Below are positions 3,054 through 16,946 of a stretch of 52,653 nt of DNA, one piece after another. Source of the DNA: a virus; the UHGV virus genome UHGV-0083175; one strand, given 5' to 3'. Within the stretch, counting starts at the first letter, position 1. Each line of letters opens with the position of its first letter. Both the position numbers and the translations under genes were made by a program. The notes below the pieces were generated by a model. That model was not told where the DNA came from. It ran no database searches and saw only the letters and a program-made list of their open reading frames with translations.

Positions 3054-3367
3054 GTGGCTGGAAGAAGTGGCGCTGGGCGGAAATTATGATACTCCGGCAG
3101 TGTGCGGGAACGATGACAGTCGAAAGCATCGGCAGTCTGATTGGCCGTAGTGGGGCTGCCGTCAGGACGAAAGCGCGGGAACTGGGTATCTGCATGATGT
3201 TACGGGGTGATTATCACCAGTCAGCCAAATGTTCACAGCGTGATATTGAGCTGGCGCGGCAACTGCATCAGCGTGGCGTACCCCGACGGGAAATTGCCGA
3301 AAAGTTTGGGATGAAGTTGGGCGCAGTGAATAACTACGTTTATTTCGACAGGAGGGTTCAGGCGTGA
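3050..3367 (+). CDS. Hypothetical HTH protein
   Basis: GTG at 3050 overlaps the upstream TGA. Two HTH-like segments are present (..[19 protein letters not shown].., ..[18 protein letters not shown]). Confidence 0.5.
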
Positions 3368-3705
3368 GGGTGAGAATTTATATCGCCGGTCCGATGACGG
3401 GATATGAAAATTTCAACCGTGAGGCGTTTCACAAGGCGGAAGAAGCACTGAAACAGGAAGGGCATACCGTATTAAATCCCGCAGTACTTCCGGACGGGCT
3501 GACTCAGCCACATTACATGGATATTTGCATGGCAATGATTCGTTGTGTGGATGCGGTTTATATGCTGAAAGGCTGGCAGCGGTCGGCAGGCGCTAAGGCA
3601 GAGCTGCACTGGCGGAGAAACTGGGGCATGCAGTTATTTTCCAGGAGGCAACCAGTGAGCGAAATTAATTACCAGGAACTACGGCAGGTGAAAGAGAAAG
3701 CATAA
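3364..3705 (+). CDS. DUF4406 (nucleoside 2-deoxyribosyltransferase-like) protein, probable 3' frameshift
   Basis: [23 protein letters not shown] is a DUF4406 signature. The family-typical C-terminus LAEKLGHAVIFQE lies in the +1 frame from about 3609. Confidence 0.65.
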   Translation: MRVRIYIAGPMTGYENFNREAFHKAEEALKQEGHTVLNPAVLPDGLTQPHYMDICMAMIRCVDAVYMLKGWQRSAGAKAELHWRRNWGMQLFSRRQPVSEINYQELRQVKEKA

Positions 3706-3815
3706 TCCAGAACTGAATAATTAAAATCAGCACTGTAAATAAAATTTAATCCTTAACCGGAGGGATTCCTGCACCCTCAGAACATCAGGAGACCGCCCGG
3801 CAGGGCGGTAGTGAA

Positions 3816-3998
3816 ATGCGAAAGTTCAAAATAATTATTGAAACGGGAATCGCCGGTGGAGATTCCGAGGATGAATTCGAAGTGAATGATGATGCGACGC
3901 CTGATGAAATTCATAACGAAGCAAAAGAAATTTTCTTTAACTACTGCAATTACTCATATCACGAAATAAAAGACGAAGAGGAAGAACAAAATGGCTGA
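3816..3998 (+). CDS. Hypothetical small acidic protein
   Basis: 60-aa ORF, D/E-rich, sitting in an AT-rich inserted segment. Confidence 0.45.
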   Translation: MRKFKIIIETGIAGGDSEDEFEVNDDATPDEIHNEAKEIFFNYCNYSYHEIKDEEEEQNG

Positions 3999-4167
3999 TT
4001 TTGGTTCAACTAAATACAACGTCAGTTTTGAAGAATGGCATGAACTGTTAATGGACTATGCAGAGTTACGTGGTGGAAGTGCCGCCGATGCTGAAGCATG
4101 GCGTGATGACTATGAAGCAGGAAAAACTCCGGTCGAAGCATATTGTGATGAGTGGGGCTATGAATGA
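3991..4167 (+). CDS. Hypothetical 58-aa protein (below the ORF-track cutoff)
   Basis: The ATG at 3991 overlaps the upstream stop, and its TGA overlaps the ATG at 4164 (ATGA). Translation: MADFGSTKYNVSFEEWHELLMDYAELRGG... Confidence 0.45.
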   Translation: MADFGSTKYNVSFEEWHELLMDYAELRGGSAADAEAWRDDYEAGKTPVEAYCDEWGYE

Positions 4168-4679
4168 GCGAGATTAATTATCAGGAAGGGCATGAAACGG
4201 CAGGGCAGGCAAAACCAGTGGCATGGCGATATCGCTACGTGAAGAAAGACGTTACAGACTTTCAGGGGAAGCTGTGGGTTGGTGACTGGAAATATGTACC
4301 GACAAAAGAGGATTGCAACGACAGACCGAACTATGAAATTCAGGCCTTATTCATCGGCCCGCCAGTCCCGGTGACATCAGAAGGACTGGTTAAAGCTGTG
4401 CGCTTTTATGAACAGGTAAAGCGTGAGAATCCGCCAGTCGAAACAGGAGCATGGAAGGATGCTGTTGACTGGGTGCTCAGAGAGGCCTGCTGTGCTGCCA
4501 TTCTGGGTAAAGCCGACAATCCACCAGCATCCGGCAATCAGGTTAGCGAATTAGCAATGTGGGTTAAACGGCTGGTCAGCCAACTGAAAAAAGCGAAGCC
4601 GGACTGCAAATTACCGGATAAGGCGATGGACTACCTGAAGCGAAACGGACTGATAAACGAGGAGAATATTTTACGATGA
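4164..4679 (+). CDS. Hypothetical phage protein
   Basis: 171-aa ORF, translationally coupled on both sides. Confidence 0.6.
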   Translation: MSEINYQEGHETAGQAKPVAWRYRYVKKDVTDFQGKLWVGDWKYVPTKEDCNDRPNYEIQALFIGPPVPVTSEGLVKAVRFYEQVKRENPPVETGAWKDAVDWVLREACCAAILGKADNPPASGNQVSELAMWVKRLVSQLKKAKPDCKLPDKAMDYLKRNGLINEENILR

Positions 4680-4759: not shown

Positions 4760-4854
4760 AAACGGTTTGCGGGGAAAGAAGAGTTAAGTAGAATTGCTGC
4801 GGGTGCTTGAGGCTGTCTGCCTCGGGCATGCCGACGTAAGGCAGACAGAGAAAA

Positions 4855-4921
4855 GCCCCAGTTAACATTATGCGTCTTGCAGGACGCTTAACATTAATCT
4901 GAGGCCATATCTATGACTTGC
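4855..4921 (-). ncRNA. sok: Sok-like antisense RNA (predicted)
   Basis: Minus-strand promoter TTGCCT-N17-TAATCT (plus coordinates 4956-4928), antisense to the mok start region. The 3' end is only approximate. Confidence 0.45.
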
Positions 4922-5125
4922 ACACTTAGATTAGCCTCTTATGCGCCGAAAGGCAAGGAGCAGCAGGCTATGAAGCAGCAAAAGGCGATGCTAATCGCCC
5001 TGATCGTCATCTGTATTACCGTCGTTGTAACGGTACTGGTAACGAGGAAAGACCTCTGCGAGGTACGAATCCGAACCGGCCAGACGGAGGTCGCTGTCTT
5101 CACAGCTTACGAATCTGAGAAGTAA
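4913..5125 (+). CDS. mok: Mok-like overlapping reading frame (modulator of killing)
   Basis: 70-aa ORF in the same frame as hok and extending it at the 5' end, as in hok/mok/sok loci. Confidence 0.55.
   Translation: MTCTLRLASYAPKGKEQQAMKQQKAMLIALIVICITVVVTVLVTRKDLCEVRIRTGQTEVAVFTAYESEK
4970..5125 (+). CDS. hok: Hok/Gef family type I toxin
   Basis: MKQQKAMLIALIVICITVVVTVLVTRKDLCEVRIRTGQTEVAVFTAYESEK matches the recalled Hok/Gef family. Confidence 0.9.
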   Translation: MKQQKAMLIALIVICITVVVTVLVTRKDLCEVRIRTGQTEVAVFTAYESEK

Positions 5126-6627: not shown

Positions 6628-6990
6628 ATGCTCATAGATTTGGTTTTACCTTACCCGCCGACGGTGAACACTTACTGGCGACGCCGTGGCAGCACATATT
6701 TTGTATCAAAAGCCGGGGAGCGTTATCGCCGGGCAGTGGCGCTTATTGTTCGCCAGCAGCGGCTGAAATTAAGACTGTCCGGACGGCTGGCAATAAAAAT
6801 TATTGCAGAGCCACCGGATAAGCGTCGTCGTGACCTGGACAATTTTCTGAAAGCGCCGCTGGATGCGCTGACGCATGCAGGAATGTTAATGGACGATGAG
6901 CAGTTTGATGAAATCAATATTGTACGTGGCAAGCCAGTATCTGGTGGACGGCTGGAGATAAGAATTACAGAGGTGGGTGTGCATGAATAA
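6628..6990 (+). CDS. rusA: Holliday junction resolvase RusA
   Basis: ..PPDKRRRDLDNFLKAPLDALTHAGMLMDDEQ..GGRLEIRITE matches the recalled E. coli RusA. Confidence 0.9.
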   Translation: MLIDLVLPYPPTVNTYWRRRGSTYFVSKAGERYRRAVALIVRQQRLKLRLSGRLAIKIIAEPPDKRRRDLDNFLKAPLDALTHAGMLMDDEQFDEINIVRGKPVSGGRLEIRITEVGVHE

Positions 6991-7648
6991 CCAGTATTTA
7001 CAGTTTGTTCGTGAGCAACTCATGATTGCCACTGCGGATCTTAGTGGGTCGACAAAAGGCCAGCTGGAAGTCTGGCAGGAAAATGCCCTGTTCGATACAG
7101 GGCGTTACAGACGCAAAAAAATTCGTTACCGCGATGAGGTAACCGGAAAAATGATCACGCGGGATAATCCCCCGATCCCGGGTAAACAATCACTGGCGAA
7201 AGGCTCATCAATTGCCCTGGTCAGTCCGGTTGAGTTTTCGACATCATCATGGCGACGCGCCGTTCTGTCTCTTGAAGAACATCATAAAGCCTGGCTGCTG
7301 TGGTGTTACAGCGGTAGCATTTGCTGGGAGCATCAGATCGCGATAACGCAGTGGGCGTGGACTGAATTTAATGCTCAATCCGGTACCAGAAAAATTGCAG
7401 GAAAAACTCTGGTGCGCCTGAAGACGTTGATCTGGTTGGCGGCGCAGGCGGTAAAAGCTGAGCTTTTTGGTGGGGAAGGTTACGAATACCAGGAACTGGC
7501 GTTACTGGTGGGAGTAACAACCAAAAACTGGTCCAAGACATTTACTGGTCACTGGGTTGCAATGAAACACATTTTTCATCGGCTGGATAGTGAAGCTTTA
7601 TTGTTGGTGGAGGGAACTCGTTCAAAACAAAAGGCGGCATTTTCATAG
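6983..7648 (+). CDS. Late-gene antiterminator Q (Qin/QuuQ type)
   Basis: It sits directly downstream of rusA and upstream of a promoter plus short terminated leader. The ATG at 6983 follows GAGGTGG. Confidence 0.75.
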   Translation: MNNQYLQFVREQLMIATADLSGSTKGQLEVWQENALFDTGRYRRKKIRYRDEVTGKMITRDNPPIPGKQSLAKGSSIALVSPVEFSTSSWRRAVLSLEEHHKAWLLWCYSGSICWEHQIAITQWAWTEFNAQSGTRKIAGKTLVRLKTLIWLAAQAVKAELFGGEGYEYQELALLVGVTTKNWSKTFTGHWVAMKHIFHRLDSEALLLVEGTRSKQKAAFS

Positions 7649-7655
7649 CAAAGTA

Positions 7656-7684
7656 TTGCAAAAGTAGACAAAAAGGCATATATT
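7656..7684 (+). promoter_or_regulatory. Late promoter PR' (predicted)
   Basis: TTGCAA (7656-7661) - 17 nt - TATATT (7679-7684), immediately after Q. A -10-like GATATT in the early transcribed region may be the pause element. Confidence 0.5.
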
Positions 7685-7734
7685 TCGTGTAAATCTGATA
7701 TTTTGCCGTTATTATACGTGATGGCAAAGCCACT

Positions 7735-7760
7735 AAAACCCGTGACCGAGCGGGTTTTTT
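7735..7760 (+). terminator. tR' intrinsic terminator
   Basis: aaaACCCG-tgaccgag-CGGGTtttttt, about 70 nt downstream of the predicted PR' start site. Confidence 0.75.
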
Positions 7761-7833
7761 ACCCCCCAAAAAATGGCATAGACATTAAACGTGATGACGA
7801 TTGTGCCAATACTTTCTCCATCAATGACGCCCC

Positions 7834-7901: not shown

Positions 7902-8615
7902 ATGGATGACAGTGCTCTGCTCAGAAACTCTTCACTTTTTGTCGCTTATATGGGCTGTCTCGGATGGGGGAGCGCTTATTTCTATGGATGGGGTACTTCA
8001 TTTTACTATGGCTTTCCATGGTGGGTTGTCGGGGCTGGTGTCGATGATGTAGCACGAAGTTTGTTTTATGCTGTGACAGTTATTGTTATATTCCTTATTG
8101 GATGGGGAGTTGGTATTGTTTTCTTTTTGGGCATAAAACAAAAGCGCAATATACAAAATTTGAGTTTTATCCGGCTTTTTCTCGCGATATTGCTGCTTTT
8201 TATTCCACCTGTTCTGGAGTTTTCTGTAATTCATCAGCATGTTGAGCCAGATGTACTGATTTTCTGCGTTCTTGCTGCCTTTGCAATCACGCTTTTTGTC
8301 AGGTCTGGAAGAAGACTTGTTTCAGTCAAATGTTTTTCGGAAATGTCTGTTATTCGCCATCACCGAATTGAGTTCATGATGGCTGGGTTTATGATTTATT
8401 TCTGGGCATTCTCTCTTATTGCCGGTTGGTACAAACCACAGTTTAAGAGGGAATATCAGGCGGTCCACTATGAGAATGTATGGTATTACATTATTGCGCG
8501 CTATGATGATCGTCTGGTGTTATCGAAATCATACAGGAGTGGGGGTAAGAAATTCGTTATATTTAATAGCGGAAATATTAATGATTTTGAAATTAATACT
8601 GTCAGAGTACGTTAA
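7902..8615 (+). CDS. Multi-pass inner-membrane protein of unknown function (moron)
   Basis: 237-aa ORF with about 5-6 hydrophobic segments rich in W/Y/F/G. It is visibly AT-rich and occupies the slot downstream of tR' where stx sits in Stx phages. Confidence 0.65.
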   Translation: MDDSALLRNSSLFVAYMGCLGWGSAYFYGWGTSFYYGFPWWVVGAGVDDVARSLFYAVTVIVIFLIGWGVGIVFFLGIKQKRNIQNLSFIRLFLAILLLFIPPVLEFSVIHQHVEPDVLIFCVLAAFAITLFVRSGRRLVSVKCFSEMSVIRHHRIEFMMAGFMIYFWAFSLIAGWYKPQFKREYQAVHYENVWYYIIARYDDRLVLSKSYRSGGKKFVIFNSGNINDFEINTVRVR

Positions 8616-9136: not shown

Positions 9137-10195
9137 ATGCTTAATACTGTAAAAATATCCAGTTGTGAGTTAATCAACGCCGACTGCCTGGAATTTATCC
9201 GGTCGTTACCCGAAAATTCTGTTGACCTGATAGTCACGGACCCGCCGTACTTTAAAGTGAAGCCTGAGGGCTGGGATAACCAGTGGAAGGGCGACGATGA
9301 TTACCTGAAGTGGCTGGACCAGTGTCTGGCGCAGTTCTGGCGGGTGCTGAAACCTGCCGGAAGTCTTTACCTGTTCTGTGGCCATCGCCTGGCATCTGAT
9401 ATCGAAATCATGATGCGTGAACGCTTCAGTGTACTGAACCATATTATCTGGGCAAAGCCGTCCGGACGCTGGAACGGGTGCAACAAGGAAAGCCTGAGGG
9501 CGTATTTCCCCGCCACAGAGCGCATTCTGTTCGCGGAACATTATCAGGGGCCGTATCGTCCGAAAGATGCCGGGTATGAGGCGAAGGGCAGGGCACTGAA
9601 ACAGCATGTGATGGCTCCGCTGATTGCTTACTTTCGTGATGCGCGTGCTGCCCTGGGGATAACGGCAAAACAGATAGTGGATGCCACAGGAAAGAAAAAC
9701 ATGGTGTCGCACTGGTTCAGTGCCAGTCAGTGGCAGCTACCGAACGAAAGCGATTATCTGAAATTACAGGCGCTGTTTGCCCGGGTGGCAGAAGAGAAGC
9801 ATCAGCGCGGTGAACTGGAAAAGCCCCACCACCAGCTGCTGGAGACGTATACTTCACTGAACCGGCAGTATGCGGAACTGCAGAGTGAATATAAGCATCT
9901 GCGGCGGTATTTTGGCGTGACGGCGCAGGTGCCGTACACGGATGTGTGGACGCATAAACCGGTGCAGTACTATCCCGGGAAACATCCGTGCGAAAAACCG
10001 GCAGAAATGCTGCAGCAGATAATCAGCGCGAGCAGTCGTCCGGGGGACCTGGTTGCAGATTTTTTCATGGGGTCGGGTTCGACAGTCAAAGCCGCGATGG
10101 CGCTGGGGCGTCGTGCAACAGGCGTTGAGCTGGAGACTGAACGTTTTGAGCAGACGGTCAGGGAAGTTCAGGATTTAGCCAGTCAGAACGGATGA
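9137..10195 (+). CDS. Orphan DNA N6-adenine (beta-class) methyltransferase
   Basis: DPPY motif IV near the N-terminus (..LIVTDPPYF) and motif I FFMGSGST near the C-terminus. No restriction enzyme gene is adjacent. Confidence 0.85.
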   Translation: MLNTVKISSCELINADCLEFIRSLPENSVDLIVTDPPYFKVKPEGWDNQWKGDDDYLKWLDQCLAQFWRVLKPAGSLYLFCGHRLASDIEIMMRERFSVLNHIIWAKPSGRWNGCNKESLRAYFPATERILFAEHYQGPYRPKDAGYEAKGRALKQHVMAPLIAYFRDARAALGITAKQIVDATGKKNMVSHWFSASQWQLPNESDYLKLQALFARVAEEKHQRGELEKPHHQLLETYTSLNRQYAELQSEYKHLRRYFGVTAQVPYTDVWTHKPVQYYPGKHPCEKPAEMLQQIISASSRPGDLVADFFMGSGSTVKAAMALGRRATGVELETERFEQTVREVQDLASQNG

Positions 10196-10235
10196 TATTG
10201 CAGGATTAGTTACGTACCGTTATTATCCTGCGCCC

Positions 10236-10310
10236 GGCCCTTTAGCTCAGTGGTGAGAGCGAGCGACTCATAATCGCCAGGTCGCTGGTTCAAATCCAGC
10301 AAGGCCACCA
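10236..10310 (+). tRNA. tRNA with anticodon CAT (Ile2/Met type), irregular acceptor stem
   Basis: Cloverleaf read by eye: TAGCTCAGTGGT D-arm, CTCATAA anticodon loop, GGTTCAAATCC T-arm, encoded CCA. The 3' acceptor strand is AAGGCC against a 5' strand of GGCCCTT. Confidence 0.7.
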
Positions 10311-10319
10311 TATCACATA

Positions 10320-10396
10320 CCGCCATTAGCTCATCGGGATAGAGCGCCAGCCTTCGAAGCTGGCTGCGCGGGGTTCGAGTCCTCGATGGCGGTCCA
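10320..10396 (+). tRNA. tRNA-Arg (anticodon TCG)
   Basis: Acceptor stem CCGCCAT/ATGGCGG, anticodon loop CTTCGAA, T-arm GGTTCGAGTCC, encoded CCA. Confidence 0.85.
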
Positions 10397-10674
10397 TTAT
10401 CTGCATTATGCGTTGTTGGTTCTGATGAGTGAATCATTGTCTTTTGAGCAACAGGCTATCATATAAGATAGCCTCAGACTTCCTTGTTTATTCTCGCCGG
10501 ATGCTTCGTAGATATTTGCAGGCATCTGTATGCAGGGGTATTATTGCGGCATATATCATCCGGAAAAATAAAAACTACATGCTGATCCGGAGATGATAGT
10601 TACAAGTCCTCCCGGATCCCGCATATTTACTATATTTTATAGATAATTGTTCTTGTTAATATGGAGATGGATAA

Positions 10675-11103
10675 ATGTATTGCCGTGCTGTACCGGTTCT
10701 TGTTTTGATATTAGCCAGTCTGACAACTGGCTGCACAAAAGATGTATCGACAAATAATTATGATGCTTCTCTGTATCACTCAGATAAATTAATAAAGTCG
10801 CAAAATTTGAGCTCATCGGAACGTACCCCTGATGCCAGTGAAGAAATCCGGCTGTATGCCATTCAGGTCAGGAAAGCCATAGAAGAACAGTTAAAGGATG
10901 CGAGTAAGTATTCAGGAAAAGAGTGTTCACTGAGAATGTATATGGCCCCGAATGGTCTTCTGCTACAGGTTAAAAGAGAAAGCGGTGATCCCGATTTATG
11001 TCGTGAAGCGATGAATGCAGTAAAGAATGCTGATATACCATCACCACCGTCTTCAGGAGTATATAAAGCATTTAGAAATGGCGTGCTGGATTTTAAACTC
11101 TGA
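10675..11103 (+). CDS. Lipoprotein carrying a TolA C-terminal (domain III)-like domain
   Basis: Lipobox LTTGC at residues 16-20. The C-terminus ..YAIQVRKAIEEQL.DASKYSGKECSLRMYMAPNGLLLQVKRESGDPDLCREAMNAV...IPSPPS..VYKAFRNGVLDFK parallels recalled E. coli TolA domain III. Confidence 0.85.
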   Translation: MYCRAVPVLVLILASLTTGCTKDVSTNNYDASLYHSDKLIKSQNLSSSERTPDASEEIRLYAIQVRKAIEEQLKDASKYSGKECSLRMYMAPNGLLLQVKRESGDPDLCREAMNAVKNADIPSPPSSGVYKAFRNGVLDFKL

Positions 11104-11238
11104 CAGGGGGAGAAGATTTTCTCCTGTCCTGATGATTTTGGGGCGCTGGAAAGATATTGTGCTGTGAAGTGTTAAATCCCTCACAATTCAGTAAGTTGAC
11201 AGTTGCCTGTCAGACTGAGCATTTGTTAAAAAAATTTC

Positions 11239-11416
11239 GCATGGTGAATCCCCCTGTGCGGAGGGGCGACTGGTGAACGGTATGATCTCTTTGATGATCG
11301 TAAGCGAGAATACGCGGGTTTGGTGTCACCGGGCTGAACTCACCGGGAGGCACCCGGCACCATGCTCATGGTGATACAGAAATGCGGCTTCAGCCCCTCT
11401 CCGGAGGGGCTTTCTT
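11239..11416 (+). ncRNA. Structured RNA module, copy A (unknown family)
   Basis: Closing helix GCATGGTG/CACCATGC, internal hairpins CCCCCT..AGGGG and CCGGG-aggca-CCCGG, and terminator GCCCCTC-tccg-GAGGGGC followed by Ts. Confidence 0.5.
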
Positions 11417-11422
11417 ATGGAC

Positions 11423-11491
11423 AAAAAAAGCCCGCGCTGGGAGACGCGGGCGGCAAGGAATAAACAATAAAACGTGAAGTAATACTTCAAC
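11423..11491 (-). ncRNA. Candidate sRNA, copy 1
   Basis: Minus-strand promoter TTGCGC-N18-TATTAT (plus coordinates 11527-11498), conserved body ACTTCACGTTTTATTGTTTATTCCTTGCC, and terminator GCCCGCG..CGCGGGC followed by T7. Confidence 0.45.
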
Positions 11492-11570
11492 TGGCGAATA
11501 ATACCCGACAGTAATCACTCTGCGCAATAGCGCGGCCTTTTTCGAATTGCGGGCTGTAGTCTCCCTTCTG

Positions 11571-11735
11571 CCGGGTGGCCTGGTTGCAGATTTCTTCATG
11601 GGGTAGGGTTCGGCAGTTAAAGCAGCGATGGCGCTGGGGCGTCGTGCAACTGGCGTTGAGCTGGATACCGGGCGTTTTGAACAGACTGCGCAGGAAATCA
11701 GGGATGTATTTAGCGGGAGCGGTTTGCAGAAGTAA
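11571..11735 (+). pseudogene. 3' remnant of a second N6-adenine methyltransferase gene
   Basis: Nucleotide-level paralogue of 10040-10195. It reads PGGLVADFFMG*GSAVKAAMALGRRATGVEL.., with an in-frame TAG. Confidence 0.8.
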
Positions 11736-11798
11736 TCTCCCAAAATGCCATTTTTGGAATATACTGGTATTAAGTCTTTTTGCTCAGGTTAATTCAAA

Positions 11799-12524
11799 AT
11801 GGATGTTGCCTGCTCTGTGGTCCTGATTCGCTATCCGATAGATATTTTTCTTGAAAAAGAAAAAGTTTCACTCGATGCCGGAAGTGTTATGCTTGTTGCC
11901 AGAAATATAAGAGGGCTTTTCTGTGCTTATGCCGACAGAGTGAAAATGGCAGATATAAGTAACAGCGTCGTCAATCAGTATCTGGAAAGGGAGTGTGAAC
12001 TGACGGAGTATACACCGACAAAAATGCCTCTTTATTTGATGTCTGATATTTACAATACGGAACTGGCGGAGGCTTTAATAACCCAGCATAGTGAATCCAG
12101 TGATACTTTGAAGGATTTCTCTGTTATAACCGCATTTTCATGTATCTCCTTATTTGCAACAGACAGGCGTCTGCCATTATTTTTGTCCGGTGCTGTAAAT
12201 AATATCAGCTGTAAAGTAAGGGCTATAATTCAGACCGACATATCGGCAGGCTGGATGCTAGGTGTGATTGCATTACAATTGCATATGAGCGAAAGCTTGT
12301 TGAAGCGAAAACTTAAGGATGAAGGTTATAGCTTTAGTCGGTTGTTGCTGGAGGAGCGAATGCGTGTTGCTGTTAATCTTGTATGTTTCCAGCGAGAGTG
12401 TGGACAAGCGATAGCGGAAAAATGTGGTTACTCAAGTAAGTCCTATTTCATTTCTGTATTTCACCAGTATTATGGTGCACCACCTGAGAGCTATGCATAT
12501 TTGCAGAAAGCAGACGTTATCTGA
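11799..12524 (+). CDS. AraC/XylS-family transcriptional regulator (moron)
   Basis: C-terminal double-HTH pattern: W.L..IA..LHMSESLLKRKLKDEGYSFSRLLLEERM..A..L......I..IAEKCGYSSKSYFISVFHQYYG.PP..Y. Confidence 0.85.
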   Translation: MDVACSVVLIRYPIDIFLEKEKVSLDAGSVMLVARNIRGLFCAYADRVKMADISNSVVNQYLERECELTEYTPTKMPLYLMSDIYNTELAEALITQHSESSDTLKDFSVITAFSCISLFATDRRLPLFLSGAVNNISCKVRAIIQTDISAGWMLGVIALQLHMSESLLKRKLKDEGYSFSRLLLEERMRVAVNLVCFQRECGQAIAEKCGYSSKSYFISVFHQYYGAPPESYAYLQKADVI

Positions 12525-12613
12525 TGTTTTTTCATCAGGCATATATTGATTGACTGTATTAGATATAGTCTGAATGTGTTCAGCATAAAAAGTTATAATC
12601 ATTTGGTGTTTGC

Positions 12614-12892
12614 GTGAATATTGATGAGAAAATCAGATGTAGCCAACTGTTACAGCGTATTGAAGCCGTCAATGTGGAACGAACAAAGGTCTTCAGTCGT
12701 CTGACAGTTTTATTTTGTACCCCTGATCGACGTTCAGGTCAGGAGATGGTTCTTCTGGATGTAGATGCACTTCGGAACGTCTGTGAGGAGTTCACCGCGG
12801 CTAATTCGGAGTTACTGAGTCTTGTTCAGGAGTACAACAGAATTGCAGGTAGTAACGGTTTTGATGAAATCAAAATTATATCCCGTGGATAA
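12614..12892 (+). CDS. Hypothetical protein
   Basis: 92-aa ORF (GTG start) downstream of the AraC-type gene, within the same AT-rich block. Confidence 0.45.
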   Translation: MNIDEKIRCSQLLQRIEAVNVERTKVFSRLTVLFCTPDRRSGQEMVLLDVDALRNVCEEFTAANSELLSLVQEYNRIAGSNGFDEIKIISRG

Positions 12893-13210
12893 AACATATC
12901 CTGTATATTTATGTTGTTACATACAGGCGCTTTTAGTATCTGCCGCACGGCAGTTGTACTTTAGAATAAGATGCTTTTGTGACTGGTGGTGTTGTATCTG
13001 GGGTTAGCCAGGAGGCAGGTTCAGAGAGTCCGGTGGTAATTATGTGTATGCAGTGGTTGTTGCTGTACCGTGGGCAAGTTCTGGAACTGGCTTCGTCCAT
13101 TGTAGATGATTGTTAGCTGGATATCAGTTACCTCATGGAAATGTTAAATGACTCACAATTCGGTTGATGGACTATTGTCTGATCGATGGAAGTCTTGTAA
13201 AAACGAGCCA

Positions 13211-13375
13211 GCATAGTGAATCCCCCTGTGCGGAGGGGCGTCTGACATGGTCTCCATAGCGATGGTCACAATACGCAGATTCAGTAGTCAGGCTGAATCT
13301 ACCGGGAGGCACCCGGCACTATGCTGCTTATGGTGTATACATAGCGATCGGCCCCTCTCCGGAGGGGCTTTTTTT
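13211..13375 (+). ncRNA. Structured RNA module, copy B
   Basis: Closing helix GCATAGTG/CACTATGC, a compensatory change relative to copy A. It has the same hairpins and terminator. Confidence 0.5.
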
Positions 13376-13469
13376 GTGCGGGAAAAGGCTGTGTTGTTAA
13401 GTGTTAAATTCCTCACAGTTCAGATGGTTGATGCTTGCCTGTCTGAGGGGGAGTTGTTAAAAAAGTTCT

Positions 13470-13634
13470 GCATGGTGAATCCCCCTGAGCGGAGGGGCAT
13501 ATCAGCGCAGGTGTTTCTACTCTATCCTTTCTGTGCGGGTTCAGGTGCTGATACTGAACTCACCGGGAGGCACCCGGCATCATGCATATGGTTAACAGAC
13601 ACGTAGCGAAGCCCCTCTCCGGAGGGGCTTTTTT
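13470..13634 (+). ncRNA. Structured RNA module, copy C
   Basis: Closing helix GCATGGTG/CATCATGC (one G-U pair), variable hairpin TATCAGC/GCTGATA, same terminator. Confidence 0.5.
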
Positions 13635-13729
13635 ATGCAGGGAAAAGGCTGTGTTGTGAAATGTTAAATTCCTCACAATTCATGAGGTTGATGATTGTCT
13701 GATTGATGAGGAGTTTGTTAAAAAAAACG

Positions 13730-13883
13730 GCATGGTGAATCCCCCTGTGCGGAGGGGTGATATCGTATCATTTCATGTGTGGCCGACTGATATCACGGAC
13801 ATTTGTTCACCGGGAGGCACCCGGCACCTGCAGTATACAGAGATTAGGCATACATCCAGGCTCCTCATCGCAGGAGCCTTTTT
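13730..13883 (+). ncRNA. Structured RNA module, copy D
   Basis: 5' GCATGGTG and 3' CACC-TGC (1-nt gap), variable hairpin GTGATATC/GATATCAC, and a different terminator GGCTCCT..AGGAGCC followed by T5. Confidence 0.45.
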
Positions 13884-13889
13884 ACATGT

Positions 13890-13967
13890 AAAAAAAACCG
13901 CTCCCGGGAAGAGCGGTTGGCAAGGAAGCAAGGAATAAATAACAAAACGTGAAGTAATTTATTCAGC
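13890..13967 (-). ncRNA. Candidate sRNA, copy 2
   Basis: Minus-strand TTGCGC-N18-TATTAT (plus coordinates 14003-13974), body ACTTCACGTTTTGTTATTTATTCCTTGC.., and terminator ACCGCTC..GAGCGGT followed by T8. The stem covaries with copy 1. Confidence 0.45.
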
Positions 13968-14115
13968 ACCCTAATAATACCTTAGAGTAATCACCTTGCG
14001 CAACTGTAAGGGCGTATTTCTTTTTTGCGGGCTGTTTTTCTGTGTGACTTTTGTGTTTCCGGAGGTCAGTCCGTGCCTTCTCTGACTCAGAACATTATCC
14101 CGGCCGGGAGGATTC

Positions 14116-16053
14116 ATGGCATTTAAACACTACGATGTGGTCAGGGCGGCATCGCCGTCAGACCTTGCTGAACGACTGACACAAAAACTGAAGGAGGGCT
14201 GGCAGCCATTTGGCAGTCCGGTGGTCATCACGCCTTATACCCTGATGCAGGCCATTGCGGCGGAAGGTGATGTCACCACACCAGTGGCGGTGACCGGTAA
14301 TGAGGGTAAGGCGGTGGCTGTCAGTGCCACCAGCGACCCGGAGTATTACTTTGTTGTGGTTCTGGCAGGGCAGTCAAATGGCATGTCGTATGGTGAAGGT
14401 CTTCCGCTGCCGGAGACATATGACCGTCCGGACCCGCGTATTAAGCAGCTGGCGCGCCGCAGTACGGTGACACCGGGCGGTGTCGCCTGTAAATATAACG
14501 ACATCATTCCGGCGGACCATTGTCTGCATGATGTGCAGGACATGAGCCGTCTTAACCATCCGAAAGCGGACCTGTCAAAGGGGCAGTACGGAACCGTGGG
14601 GCAGGGGCTGCATATCGCCAAAAAACTGCTGCCGTTTATACCGGCGAATGCGGGTATTCTGCTGGTTCCGTGCTGTCGTGGTGGTTCAGCGTTCACCACC
14701 GGAGCTGATGGCACATACAGTGACGCGAGTGGTGCCTCGGAGAATTCAGCGCGCTGGGGTGTGGACAAGCCGCTGTATAAGGACCTTATCGGTCGAACAA
14801 AAGCAGCACTGAAGAAGAACCCGAAAAATGTGCTGTTTGCCGTGGTGTGGATGCAGGGGGAATTTGATTTTGACGGCACGCCCGGAAATCACGCAGCACA
14901 GTTTGGTGCGCTGGTTGATAAATTCCGTGCAGACCTGACGGATATGGCAGGTCAGTGCGTTGGTGGCTCTGCTGGCGGTGTTCCCTGGATATGCGGGGAC
15001 ACGACGTATTTCTGGAAGCAGAAGAACGAATCCACCTGCCAGATGGTGTACGGCAGCTATAAAAACAAAACGGAAAAGAATATCCATTTCGTACCGTTCA
15101 TGACGGATGAGAACGGGGTGAATGTGCCGACGAACAAACCGGAAGAAGACCCGGACATTCCGGGTATCGGGTATTACGGTTCGAAATGGCGTGACAGCTC
15201 AGCCACCTGGACGTCACAGGACAGGGCGAGCCATTTCAGCACCTGGGCACGCCGGGGGATTATTTCCGACCGTCTGGCAACGGCGATTCTGATTCATGCA
15301 GGACGAACCACAGTAAAAGTCGATGCTCCATCTTCTGAAACTGGCGCACCGACGCCATCACCGTCAGAAAATGAAGCGGTAAGCACAACAACACTGCTGT
15401 CTTACCGTGCCAGTGAGTCTGAAGGGAGGCTGACCGAACAGGGCTGGAGTGCTGGCGGAGGTAAAGCGGAAATTGTTGCTGATGAAGGTGCAACAGGTGG
15501 TACCGCGATGAAGCTGAGCAAGGAGACAGGAGTGGGGTCATGGTATCTGGAGCATGATGCCGGTACTGGCGCTGAACTGCTGAAAAATGGCGGTTTAATC
15601 AGCTGCCGCTTTAAGGCATCCGGTGAACTGGTAGCAAATCAGTATGTCATTGCACTTTACTGGCCGGTTTCCTCTCTGCCGCAGGGTGTCACCCTGACAG
15701 GGGATGCAGGGAATAATCTGCTGGCAGCGTTTTACATCCAGACAGATGCAAAAGACCTGAATGTGATGTACCACAATGCGAAGGTGGCGACAAATAACCT
15801 GAAACTGGGAAGCTTTGGCGCATTTGATAACGAATGGCATACGCTGGCTTTCCGCTTTGCCGGGAATAACAGCCTTCAGGTGACGCCGGTTATTGATGGT
15901 CAGGATGGCACACCGTTCACGCTGACGCAGTCACCGGTCAGTGCATTTTCGGCGGATAAGTTGCATGTGACAGACATTACCAAAAGTGCGACTTACCCGG
16001 TACTGATAGACAGCATTGCGGTGGTAGTGAATAACGCGGACGCCGCGGCATGA
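14116..16053 (+). CDS. nanS-p: NanS-p type prophage sialate 9-O-acetylesterase
   Basis: N-terminal DUF1737-like MAFKHYDVVRAASPSDLAERL.., an SASA/SGNH block VVLAGQSNGMSYG, 645 aa, and the typical position upstream of the lysis genes. Confidence 0.85.
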   Translation: MAFKHYDVVRAASPSDLAERLTQKLKEGWQPFGSPVVITPYTLMQAIAAEGDVTTPVAVTGNEGKAVAVSATSDPEYYFVVVLAGQSNGMSYGEGLPLPETYDRPDPRIKQLARRSTVTPGGVACKYNDIIPADHCLHDVQDMSRLNHPKADLSKGQYGTVGQGLHIAKKLLPFIPANAGILLVPCCRGGSAFTTGADGTYSDASGASENSARWGVDKPLYKDLIGRTKAALKKNPKNVLFAVVWMQGEFDFDGTPGNHAAQFGALVDKFRADLTDMAGQCVGGSAGGVPWICGDTTYFWKQKNESTCQMVYGSYKNKTEKNIHFVPFMTDENGVNVPTNKPEEDPDIPGIGYYGSKWRDSSATWTSQDRASHFSTWARRGIISDRLATAILIHAGRTTVKVDAPSSETGAPTPSPSENEAVSTTTLLSYRASESEGRLTEQGWSAGGGKAEIVADEGATGGTAMKLSKETGVGSWYLEHDAGTGAELLKNGGLISCRFKASGELVANQYVIALYWPVSSLPQGVTLTGDAGNNLLAAFYIQTDAKDLNVMYHNAKVATNNLKLGSFGAFDNEWHTLAFRFAGNNSLQVTPVIDGQDGTPFTLTQSPVSAFSADKLHVTDITKSATYPVLIDSIAVVVNNADAAA

Positions 16054-16188
16054 TAAAAAAAGCCGCCAGTTACCGGAATGGACTGGCGGTGGTAATACCT
16101 ATGGAGAAAAAATAAAGGAACGATACTTTCGTACTCTGTTTTTTTAAATGAAAACAGTTCTTATTGTCAACAATAACGGTAAGAAATT

Positions 16189-16368
16189 ATGACTTTTATT
16201 CATCAGGTGATGCTGTACTTCTGTACGGCAGTCTGTGTGCTGTATCTCCTTTCGGGCGGATACCGGGCCATGCGTGACTTCTGGCGCAGACAGATTGACA
16301 AAAGGGCCGCTGAGAAAATCAGCGCCAGTCAGTCAGCCGGAAGCAAACCCGAAGAGCCGCTCATTTAG
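16189..16368 (+). CDS. Small membrane protein (59 aa, DUF826-like; below the track cutoff)
   Basis: MTFIHQVMLYFCTAVCVLYLLSGGYRAMRDFWRRQIDKRAAEK... has one TM segment. It occupies a position conserved upstream of the holin in related prophages (recalled). Confidence 0.55.
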   Translation: MTFIHQVMLYFCTAVCVLYLLSGGYRAMRDFWRRQIDKRAAEKISASQSAGSKPEEPLI

Positions 16369-16408
16369 CGGCAACTTTCTTAATCACACCTTTCGACGAG
16401 AAAATCCC

Positions 16409-16654
16409 ATGTCAGAAATTACATCCCTGGTCACTGCTGAAGCAGTGAAGGACGTCCTGCGCTCTGAAGAAGTCCTGAGCGCACTGAAACAGAAACTTCG
16501 CCATAACCTGGAAGCGCGTCTTGATGCAGAAGTGGATGCCATTCTGGATGAACTGCTGGGCGCACCGGCAGTTCCGGAGCCGGAAGGTATCGCGGGTGAG
16601 GGGAGTGCTTCAGATGGCGGTGACCCCACACCTGACAGCGACATGATGATGTAA
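16409..16654 (+). CDS. Hypothetical acidic protein
   Basis: The ATG at 16409 gives [30 protein letters not shown]... (81 aa). The track ORF is extended upstream to 16235. Confidence 0.55.
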
Positions 16655-16730
16655 GCATGCGCAAGGGACCATCGGTGTGTGCCGGTGGTCTTTATATTGT
16701 TGTGAGCTTCCGGATTGCGGGAGACGGGGT

Positions 16731-16946
16731 ATGTACCAGATGGAAAAAATCACAACAGGTGTGTCATACACCACGTCAGCGGTGGGAACGGGCTACTGGT
16801 TCCTGCAGTTGCTGGACAGGGTTTCCCCGTCTCAGTGGGCGGCAATAGGCGTGCTGGGGAGTCTGCTGTTTGGGCTGCTGACATATCTGACGAACCTGTA
16901 TTTCAAAATTAAAGAAGACCGGCGTAAGGCGGCGCGGGGAGAGTAG
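16731..16946 (+). CDS. S: S21-type class II holin (pinholin), dual-start
   Basis: [71 protein letters not shown] matches the recalled phage 21/Stx-phage S. Met1 and Met4 form the dual-start motif. Confidence 0.9.

Follow-up and report, generated by a model that had tools for sequence, protein, structure and literature searches.

Four STnc100 units in the late region of a lambdoid prophage

The stretch of DNA analyzed here, UHGV virus genome UHGV-0083175 (52,653 nucleotides [nt]; referred to as the window), is a lambdoid prophage of the type found in Escherichia coli strains that produce Shiga toxin (STEC). Its late region contains four repeated, structured RNA units, copies A to D, that are members of the prophage small RNA (sRNA) family STnc100. 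The units had been noticed in an original prediction made from the sequence alone, and direct reading of positions 10900 to 14200 bore out their number, their coordinates, and the tandem arrangement of three of them (Table 1). Copy A is solo and lies downstream of a moron gene for a protein with a TolA C-terminal domain, and copies B, C, and D follow each other head to tail with a period of 259 to 261 bp. In the following, P1 designates the closing helix, H1 and H3 designate hairpins 1 and 3, PK stands for a pseudoknot, and P4 is the covarying helix whose loop takes part in it. An alignment of the four copies with their flanks is made up of an invariant P1 5' strand followed by GAAU, H1, a variable middle, H3, a divergent linker of ~25 nt, and a GC-rich terminator; homology between the copies reaches ~70 nt upstream of P1. 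The stems of H1 (CCCCU-GNGCGG-AGGGG) and H3 (CCGGG-AGGCA-CCCGG) are identical in all four copies, and H3 directly adjoins the 3' strand of P1. In copy B, P1 is formed by GCATAGTG and CACTATGC, a true double change with both strands altered relative to copy A. The single-sequence minimum-free-energy fold of each copy has the same multibranch architecture, with z-scores of -2.2 (A), -3.3 (B), -3.1 (C; -3.05), and -1.4 (D), and the linkers, which differ in sequence from copy to copy, are single stranded in all four folds. A scan of positions 11050 to 14150 revealed 12 terminator-like sites compared to 2.6 ± 1.8 in shuffled sequences; among the 12 are the terminators of all four units, as predicted, and two terminators on the minus strand that are oriented toward copies A and D. 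The four units are thus a real feature, well above chance.

The original prediction could not place the modules in a known RNA family. An Infernal search of Rfam 15, however, assigned all four copies to RF02076 (STnc100) at the gathering threshold, with 119 to 172 bits as compared to a gathering score of 47, E values of 1e-25 to 3e-39, and model positions 1 to 206 covered in each case. The helices of the STnc100 consensus (the closing helix, CCCCU/AGGGG, GGGUUcag/cugAACUC, and CCGGG/CCCGG) were found in each copy, P4 of copy D being a mini-hairpin of 4 bp. The copies also have the Rho-independent terminator at the 3' end and the prophage late-region site near Q, nanS-p, and the holin gene. An assignment by Infernal to a known repeat or insertion sequence (IS) remnant had been named as an outcome that would speak against the prediction; a family was indeed returned, but it is a known sRNA family and not an IS remnant. 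A permissive Rfam scan of positions 10400 to 16800 (E < 1) gave nothing credible besides STnc100, and matches to istR, rli32, anti-hemB, and Esr41, which scored far below their gathering scores, were rejected. The same was done with three other classifications: (i) an IS remnant or repetitive extragenic palindromic (REP)-type repeat, since Rfam gives STnc100 only, there is no transposase open reading frame (ORF), and RefSeq annotates nothing under the units; (ii) a tRNA-like element, since ARAGORN calls only two genuine tRNAs at 10235 to 10396 and none in the units; and (iii) a coding sequence, since the ORFs across the units are not conserved. The prediction had likewise held the modules to be noncoding, and ORF lengths and frames do differ among them.

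The modules are therefore STnc100 members, also known as EcOnc27 or sRNA103 and related to PasD, and do not form a new RNA class. EcOnc27 is the copy just 3' of stx2B in the Sakai prophage Sp5; it was recovered by UV cross-linking to Hfq and forms a "convergent dyad" with the anti-sRNA AsxR at the moron site 3' of PR' (PMC4104026). In our analysis, this Sp5 copy scored 207.7 bits against the STnc100 model, with AsxR immediately convergent, and the northern probe published for EcOnc27 is, except for a few bases, the reverse complement of the copy D linker (AGUAUACAGAGAUUAGGCAUACAUCC). The sRNA103 of strain EDL933 is the same RNA as EcOnc27 (PMC7873438). This strain has 11 expressed STnc100 copies, one of which (STnc100_4) was confirmed by northern blotting (PMC5331693), and EcOnc27/sRNA103 has been detected in STEC outer-membrane vesicles (PMC12370729). 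According to a 2026 preprint, PasD1 and PasD2, sRNAs detected by ligating and sequencing interacting RNAs (RIL-seq) in enteropathogenic E. coli (EPEC), share ancestry with STnc100 (10.64898/2026.05.13.724894). With 37.7 bits, PasD1 does not reach the gathering score of the STnc100 model.

Covariation supports a family-wide fold with a pseudoknot

To compile a family set, one genome per species was scanned with a pattern anchored on H1 and H3, which resulted in 45 loci from more than 12 genera. From these, 38 representatives that were less than 80% similar in the middle section were aligned with MAFFT without structural input. In this set, P1 is 91% paired, with changes on both sides at 7 of its 8 pairs, and P4 is 90% paired, with changes on both sides at all 8. 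Covariation over the whole structure was 0.407, compared to 0.167 ± 0.010 in shuffled alignments (0 of 500 reached the observed value) and 0.07 to 0.12 when partners were slid. In an alignment-free test, the P4 strands of the same locus scored 7.11 and those of different loci 5.13 (0 of 100,000 permutations). The invariance of H1 and H3 in the 38 representatives is imposed by the search pattern, and divergent copies were found separately with nhmmer. These showed compensatory variants of H1 (CUCCU/AGGAG, CCCAUC/GAUGGG, and CCACC/GGUGG, as well as CACGUC/GGCGUG in Pantoea) and one of H3 (UCGGG/CCCGA). Across the family, substitutions keep base pairing and not codons. The claim of a structured RNA with compensatory changes, made from four copies, thus also holds in a wider alignment.

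The same cannot be said in full of the "variable hairpin" of the original prediction. Its complementary pairs are real, but a simple hairpin is present only in copy D, in which the pairing is nested. In copies A to C, the 3' partner sits inside the P4 loop, so that the segment following H1 and this loop form a pseudoknot. In the MAFFT alignment, 57.9% of the PK columns are paired, compared to 40.1 ± 2.6% in shuffles (0 of 500), and PK covariation is 0.398, compared to 0.181 in shuffles and 0.08 to 0.22 in slid controls. The column count is diluted by register slips of 1 nt, and the alignment was not refitted, to avoid bias. Because of these slips, we added an alignment-free permutation test: the segment after H1 paired with the P4 loop of its own locus at a mean score of 6.05, compared to 4.10 with those of other loci (0 of 100,000 permutations). 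At least 10 distinct PK sequence solutions are found across the family. Those of other genera include ACUGGAUA/UAUCCAGU, AAGCCAG/CUGGCUU, AAGUCACA/UGUGACUU, GAACAAUC/GAUUGUU, ACUGGCAAU/GUUGCCAGU, and UUCCAGAA/UUCUGGAG, and PasD1 also has the PK, formed by AAUGAUC, which follows H1, and GAUCAUU of the P4 loop. Taken together, these data show that P1, P4, and the pseudoknot are family-wide. The PK pairing is not in the consensus structure line of Rfam RF02076, and a pseudoknot is not mentioned in the 2026 preprint (10.64898/2026.05.13.724894).

Candidate promoters and start sites

Upstream of P1, all four copies of the window conserve blocks that consist of a -35 element TTG(C/T)CT, a spacer of 17 to 18 bp, and a -10 element TG-n-TAAAAA. 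A canonical scan revealed no plus-strand sigma-70 site in the region, because the scan demands a T as the last base of the -10 hexamer and TAAAAA ends in A. In the 38 representatives, which come from many genera, -10-like hexamers cluster with their last base 4 to 11 nt upstream of P1, and TTGACN is often found 16 to 18 bp further upstream. Furthermore, the 5' end of PasD1 determined by RNA sequencing (RNA-seq; NC_011601 position 1060260) is the first G of GCAUGGUG, which is the first base of P1, and this start is preceded by TTGACT-17-TTAAAA. Based on the family-wide -10 enrichment and the 5' end of PasD1, we infer that each unit is a gene of its own, with a promoter directly upstream, a start that coincides with the first base of P1 or adjoins it, and a product of ~155 to 180 nt. 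The TTGACA present in copy A (11196 to 11201) was rejected as the -35 element, as it is 25 bp from the -10 element and not conserved in copies B to D.

The region of homology upstream of the units also contains a conserved block, GTGTTAAAT-CCTCACAATTCAG, that is confined to the E. coli subgroup, is partly kept downstream of stx2B in Sakai Sp5, and is absent upstream of PasD1 and in other genera. The TGTTAAAT/CACAAT block was rejected as the main promoter because it is conserved neither outside the E. coli subgroup nor in PasD. The upstream block may be either a second promoter, in line with the 235/247-nt species of EcOnc27, or a site for a regulator. Within it lies CUCACA, the motif reported to be targeted by the PasD seed. 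On the minus strand, the scan called promoter-like sites at 13721 to 13694 and 13201 to 13174 (TTAACA/TTTACA-16-GACAAT), which share positions with the candidate promoters of copies D and B, respectively, on the plus strand; they may be chance matches or divergent antisense promoters.

Distribution across genera and variation in array size

The 45 loci of the family set are from Escherichia, Enterobacter, Klebsiella, Kosakonia, Pantoea, Erwinia, Superficieibacter, Atlantibacter, Kluyvera, Lelliottia, Franconibacter, Phytobacter, Mangrovibacter, and others, and the loci of this cross-genus scan that were sampled were called STnc100 by Rfam. A scan of viral contigs retrieved at least 120 loci. 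The fold is found in more than 12 enterobacterial genera, and so is its placement upstream of phage lysis genes. Of 165 loci that matched the core, at least 59 have a P21-type holin gene downstream in the same orientation, 55 have nanS there, and 40 have a methylase gene upstream. Cores were clustered in groups of 2, 3, 4, and 5 in 10, 6, 1, and 1 cases, respectively.

E. coli N51 matches the 4-kb segment from 10200 to 14200 with 99.9% identity, and a match to at least 80% of this segment is found in 78 complete genomes. Of 5,426 complete E. coli genomes, 86 contain the junction between copies B and C. The size of the array differs between strains, since the O113:H21 strain FWSEC0010 (locus positions 3285 to 4264) has four tandem copies and a solo copy, compared to three tandem copies in the window; OkiPb01681 also has three. 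In Pantoea rodasii (locus positions 3238 to 3645), three cores separated by spacers of 13 to 25 nt and without internal terminator are followed by a single terminator and then a holin gene. This locus has a further core (2065 to 2170), followed by a tRNA-like sequence. A Pantoea plasmid (894 to 2010) carries at least four adjacent cores, likewise 13 to 25 nt apart, with no terminators between them. Since the PasA and PasD copies of the preprint are dispersed and not in tandem (10.64898/2026.05.13.724894), tandem STnc100 arrays are a minor addition to a described family. What goes beyond the database entry is the pseudoknot, the cross-genus recurrence of the fold and of its site upstream of lysis genes, and the variable array size.

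Genomic context and convergent partners

The late-region site proposed in the original prediction agrees with the gene order in Table 1, in which the units lie downstream of Q and upstream of nanS-p and a P21-type holin gene. Directly after Q, the features of positions 7650 to 7765 suggest that this segment likely encodes the short PR'/tR' transcript, which by its position would correspond to lambda 6S RNA or StxS. The moron slot of the window contains the TolA C-terminal-domain protein and the AraC-family regulator, and the same slot is occupied by stx2AB in Stx2a phages. The methylase gene fragment following copy A, a methyltransferase pseudogene in the RefSeq equivalent, marks a past duplication or recombination that brought in a second moron cassette and the sRNA array.

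Two sRNA-like genes on the minus strand face copies A and D. Both have a 5' hairpin, a CCUUGC motif, a strong terminator, and the AsxR promoter region in common. They were rejected as AsxR or AgvB, as neither family gave an Rfam match at E < 1. The partner that faces copy A is nearly identical to the EPEC RIL-seq candidate E2348C_1409.E2348C_1408.IGR. Elsewhere in the window, in the early/nin region, positions 4801 to 4975 (plus strand) match the sok antitoxin RNA of Rfam with 113 bits, which indicates a toxin-antitoxin locus of the hok/sok type.

Table 1. Features of the late region of the window. Units are given from the first base of the P1 5' strand to the last base of the U-tract.
Feature	Position	Strand	Details
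Q late antiterminator	6977-7648	+	Pfam PF06323, 303 bits
Candidate PR'/tR'	~7650-7765	+	Promoter-like TTGCAA...TATATT; strong terminator AAAACCCGTGACCGAGCGGGTTTTTT; directly after Q
Predicted multipass membrane protein	7902-8615	+	237 amino acids (aa); no Pfam match; directly downstream of candidate tR'
DNA methylase	9137-10195		
tRNA-Met, tRNA-Arg	10235-10396		ARAGORN
TolA C-terminal-domain protein	10675-11103	+	Lipoprotein-like N terminus
Conserved upstream block	11169-11191; 13140-13163; 13401-13423; 13660-13683	+	GTGTTAAAT-CCTCACAATTCAG; 48-70 nt upstream of each P1
Candidate sigma-70 promoter, copy A	11203-11232	+	-35 TTGCCT 11203-11208; 18-bp spacer; extended -10 TGtTAAAAA 11224-11232
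Candidate promoters, copies B, C, D	13175-13203; 13435-13463; 13695-13724	+	Equivalent to that of copy A; blocks conserved in all four copies
Copy A	11239-11416	+	RF02076, 172.4 bits, match 11210-11422
Copy A, P1	11239-11246/11358-11365	+	GCATGGTG/CACCATGC
Copy A, H1	11251-11266	+	
Copy A, PK	11270-11276 with 11326-11332	+	CUGGUGA/UCACCGG
Copy A, P4	11316-11323/11334-11341	+	
Copy A, H3	11343-11357	+	
Copy A, linker; terminator and U-tract	11366-11391; 11392-11416	+	
Convergent sRNA-like gene facing copy A	11423-11490	-	Promoter-like TTGCGC-18-TATTAT 11527-11498; terminator 11451-11430; ends inferred
Methylase gene fragment	~11575-11735		Homologous to 3' end of the gene at 9137-10195
AraC-family regulator	11799-12524	+	
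ORF	12614-12892		92 aa
Copy B	13211-13375	+	First of tandem array; RF02076, 119.5 bits, match 13182-13377
Copy B, P1	13211-13218/13317-13324	+	GCAUAGUG/CACUAUGC as RNA
Copy B, H1	13223-13238	+	
Copy B, PK	13240-13246 with 13287-13292	+	GUCUGAC/GUCAGG
Copy B, P4	13277-13284/13293-13300	+	AGAUUCAG/CUGAAUCU
Copy B, H3; linker; terminator	13302-13316; 13325-13349; 13350-13375	+	
Copy C	13470-13634	+	RF02076, 141.2 bits, match 13441-13640
Copy C, P1	13470-13477/13578-13585	+	GCATGGTG/CATCATGC, one G-U pair
Copy C, H1	13482-13497	+	Loop GAGCGG
Copy C, PK	13500-13506 with 13547-13553	+	UAUCAGC/GCUGAUA
Copy C, P4; H3	13537-13544/13554-13561; 13563-13577	+	
Copy C, linker; terminator	13586-13609; 13610-13634	+	
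Copy D	13730-13883	+	EcOnc27/sRNA103 type; directly 5' of nanS-p; RF02076, 129.4 bits, match 13702-13889
Copy D, P1	13730-13737/13825-13831	+	Imperfect; 1-nt deletion (CACC-TGC) weakens helix
Copy D, H1	13742-13757	+	
Copy D, nested hairpin	13758-13764/13789-13795	+	
Copy D, mini-hairpin	13797-13800/13805-13808	+	4 bp; reduced P4
Copy D, H3; linker; terminator	13810-13824; 13832-13857; 13858-13883	+	
Convergent sRNA-like gene facing copy D	13890-13966	-	Promoter-like TTGCGC-18-TATTAT 14003-13974; terminator 13918-13896
nanS-p sialate O-acetylesterase	14116-16053	+	Pfam SASA, DUF1737, DUF6645; immediately downstream of array
P21-type holin	16677-16946	+	Pfam Phage_holin_2_1

Proposed mode of action

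We consider it probable that the four modules are separate STnc100 sRNA genes that carry seed-bearing linkers on a common scaffold at the moron site of this prophage. Each unit would be transcribed from its own sigma-70 promoter, with the start at P1. The first ~125 nt would then form a compact domain composed of P1, H1, the PK, a variable insert, and H3 stacked on P1, and burial of the 5' end in P1 would confer stability. By analogy to its homologues, the 3' part, namely, the linker of ~25 nt and the terminator with its U-tail, would bind Hfq and pair with targets in trans, and the four copies, with their different linkers, would act as four regulators that differ in their seeds but have the scaffold in common. 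In the lysogen, each unit would be transcribed independently, and the terminators would halt polymerases arriving from the moron genes. Once the prophage is induced, Q-modified polymerase that started at PR' would pass all four terminators and reach nanS-p and the lysis genes. The evidence from homologues is as follows. In EcOnc27, the Hfq reads obtained by UV cross-linking and analysis of cDNA (CRAC) fall on the last ~80 nt, and a 247-nt species is destabilized in the absence of hfq (PMC4104026). PasD was detected in EPEC by northern blotting and RIL-seq, and the chimeras of PasD1 and PasD2 and their UGUGAG seed map to the linker/terminator part, just 5' of the terminator (PMC8550237).

A number of observations weigh against this reading. 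(i) The EcOnc27 species seen in northern blots are ~235/247 nt long (PMC4104026), longer than the ~170 nt expected for a start at P1; they may stem from a start further upstream or from the processing of a read-through RNA. (ii) For no STnc100 member has a validated direct target been reported (PMC7873438). (iii) A DESeq2 table lists no significant change in the abundance of PasD1 and PasD2 (log2 fold changes of 0.55 and -0.18; PMC8550237), and if this table is read as a comparison of the hfq deletion with the wild type, the Hfq dependence of PasD is weak. (iv) The P4 loop of 6 to 9 nt would, like the loops of kissing complexes, be almost fully paired in the pseudoknot, which is sterically demanding, so that P4 and the PK could alternate and not coexist. 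(v) A separate function of the core is suggested by the strictly conserved loops of H1 and H3, by the pseudoknot, and by the Pantoea arrays in which cores follow each other without linker or terminator; simple seed pairing does not account for this.

This last point leads to a different account, in which the pseudoknotted core of ~125 nt is the functional unit that binds a phage or host protein, an RNA, or a metabolite and acts as sponge, decoy, or sensor, with Hfq binding at the 3' end being secondary. We regard this account as possible but rather doubtful, and hold with the same reserve that the core is an autonomous fold of about tRNA size that is kept between antiterminator or moron and lysis genes across temperate phages from a range of enterobacterial genera, i.e., a so far unrecognized structured phage RNA class filed as an ordinary Hfq sRNA. 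The 30 specified nt of H1 and H3 are exact in all 45 loci, but this exactness derives in part from the search pattern, and H1 varies in divergent copies. The PK and P4 covary around fixed loops, Pantoea rodasii and the Pantoea plasmid carry strings of cores without internal promoters or terminators, and the barely changed PasD abundance, read as above, points in the same direction. Moreover, P1 and H3 can be seen in the sequence to form a coaxial stack of 12 to 13 bp with zero intervening nt, like the acceptor and T arms of tRNA; ARAGORN, however, makes no tRNA-like call in the units, and no other Rfam family matches. No partner of the core is known, and it is the 3' part to which RIL-seq and CRAC of the homologues assign the interaction. 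An action mainly in cis appears unlikely. Here, the terminators of the units, together with the convergent ones, would insulate nanS-p and the lysis genes in the lysogen, and the repeats would aid the recombination by which morons are swapped. The constant site of the units between a moron and downstream late genes (holin and nanS in the proportions of the 165 loci given above), the back-to-back terminators on both strands, the presence of three or four tandem copies in different strains, the methylase fragment after copy A as a trace of rearrangement at this site, and the occurrence of the same linker type on different cores are all consistent with such a role. Nevertheless, a bare terminator requires neither a covarying pseudoknot fold of 125 nt nor a promoter of its own, and the homologues are found as discrete RNAs bound to Hfq. 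Such a role in cis goes together with separate sRNA genes and does not replace them.

The original prediction hinted at a riboswitch or attenuator, in which the domain senses a signal and switches between terminator and antiterminator folds for the late genes, and we find this highly improbable. The alternative pairings on which the hint was based do exist: GCCCCUC, the terminator's 5' arm, is able to base pair with GAGGGGC, the H1 3' strand, as it does in the centroid fold of copy A, and a second (C/U)AUGGU, noted earlier as an extra CATGGTG, follows P1 in copies A to C; P4 and the PK might also be mutually exclusive states. Yet the pairing of terminator and H1 and the second (C/U)AUGGU are restricted to the E. 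coli subgroup, and the terminators of other genera are unrelated and have no complementarity to H1. No ORF follows copies A, B, or C: next to A come the convergent sRNA and the methylase fragment, next to B comes copy C, and next to C comes copy D. Copy D alone has an ORF after it, 230 nt away and behind further terminator-like hairpins. Own promoters per unit and the accumulation of homologues as terminated RNAs likewise argue against it, and the terminators would not, in any event, stop a polymerase modified by Q. Least credible of all is that the units are genes for small proteins, with an AUG at RNA positions 3 to 5 (GC-AUG-GUG-AAU) opening a short, nearly leaderless ORF. This AUG is present in copies A, C, and D, and ribosome footprints with coverage values of up to 3.2 were found on some STnc100 copies of EDL933 (PMC5331693). 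Copy B, however, has AUA, the ORFs range from 11 to 119 codons without a conserved frame, the corresponding position is occupied by GUGGUG, GCGGUG, ACAGAUG, or CAACG in other genera, and, as stated above, it is the pairing and not the codons that substitutions preserve.

Relation to known systems and relevance

EcOnc27/sRNA103 resembles the units in its helices P1, H1, P4, and H3, its linker (nearly the same as that of copy D) and terminator, its site between moron and nanS-p, and its convergent sRNA partner. It differs in being a single copy in Sakai Sp5, as compared to a solo copy plus three tandem copies with four different linkers here, and the convergent partner here is neither AsxR nor AgvB. 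PasD1 and PasD2 of EPEC E2348/69 (172 to 173 nt) have in common with the units P1 (GCAUGGUG) with the 5' end at it, H1, a PK with the P4 loop, a linker seed, a terminator, and a site downstream of Q and upstream of nanS-p or holin, whereas H1 and H3 have diverged, the seed UGUGAG and the terminator differ, and the copies are reported as dispersed. In the AsxR/AgvB dyads (Tree et al. 2014), a plus-strand STnc100-type RNA and a short minus-strand sRNA with facing terminators likewise occupy the moron site 3' of PR', and the minus-strand partners in the window have the AsxR promoter region; their body, however, differs (seed CCUUGC), and our finding concerns the plus-strand member of the dyad.

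Other systems are comparable in individual aspects. Lambda 6S and StxS are also short, terminated late-region transcripts of lysogens that Q-modified polymerase reads through, but they start at PR' right after Q, whereas the STnc100 units are located 3.5 to 6 kb further, with own promoters and a large conserved fold. OmrA/B, PrrF1/2, and Qrr1-5 are adjacent duplicated sRNA genes, each with its promoter and terminator, that have a common scaffold and differ in one part. In contrast to the units, these are chromosomal core-genome regulators with known regulons and without a large pseudoknotted domain; here, it is the 5' fold that is conserved and the putative seed that varies. Attenuating riboswitches similarly combine a multihelix junction, a pseudoknot, and highly conserved loops with an intrinsic terminator that follows. 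They differ in that no regulated ORF follows the domain here, no terminator/antiterminator alternative is found family-wide, and the terminated product itself is, in homologues, a stable Hfq-associated RNA.

The STnc100 assignment removes the four modules from the candidates for a new RNA class, and the finding is otherwise an ordinary one; what is of interest is the covariation-supported pseudoknot and the widely distributed conserved core. The units occupy the site of the Shiga toxin genes in related phages, and variants inside the stx2-adjacent STnc100 copy were statistical predictors of severe disease, namely, hemolytic uremic syndrome (PMC12711010). For research on this family, the relevant results are the covariation of the PK, the start at the closing helix deduced here, and a cross-genus core that includes arrays without internal terminators. 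These results suggest that the conserved fold, and not the seed alone, deserves attention.

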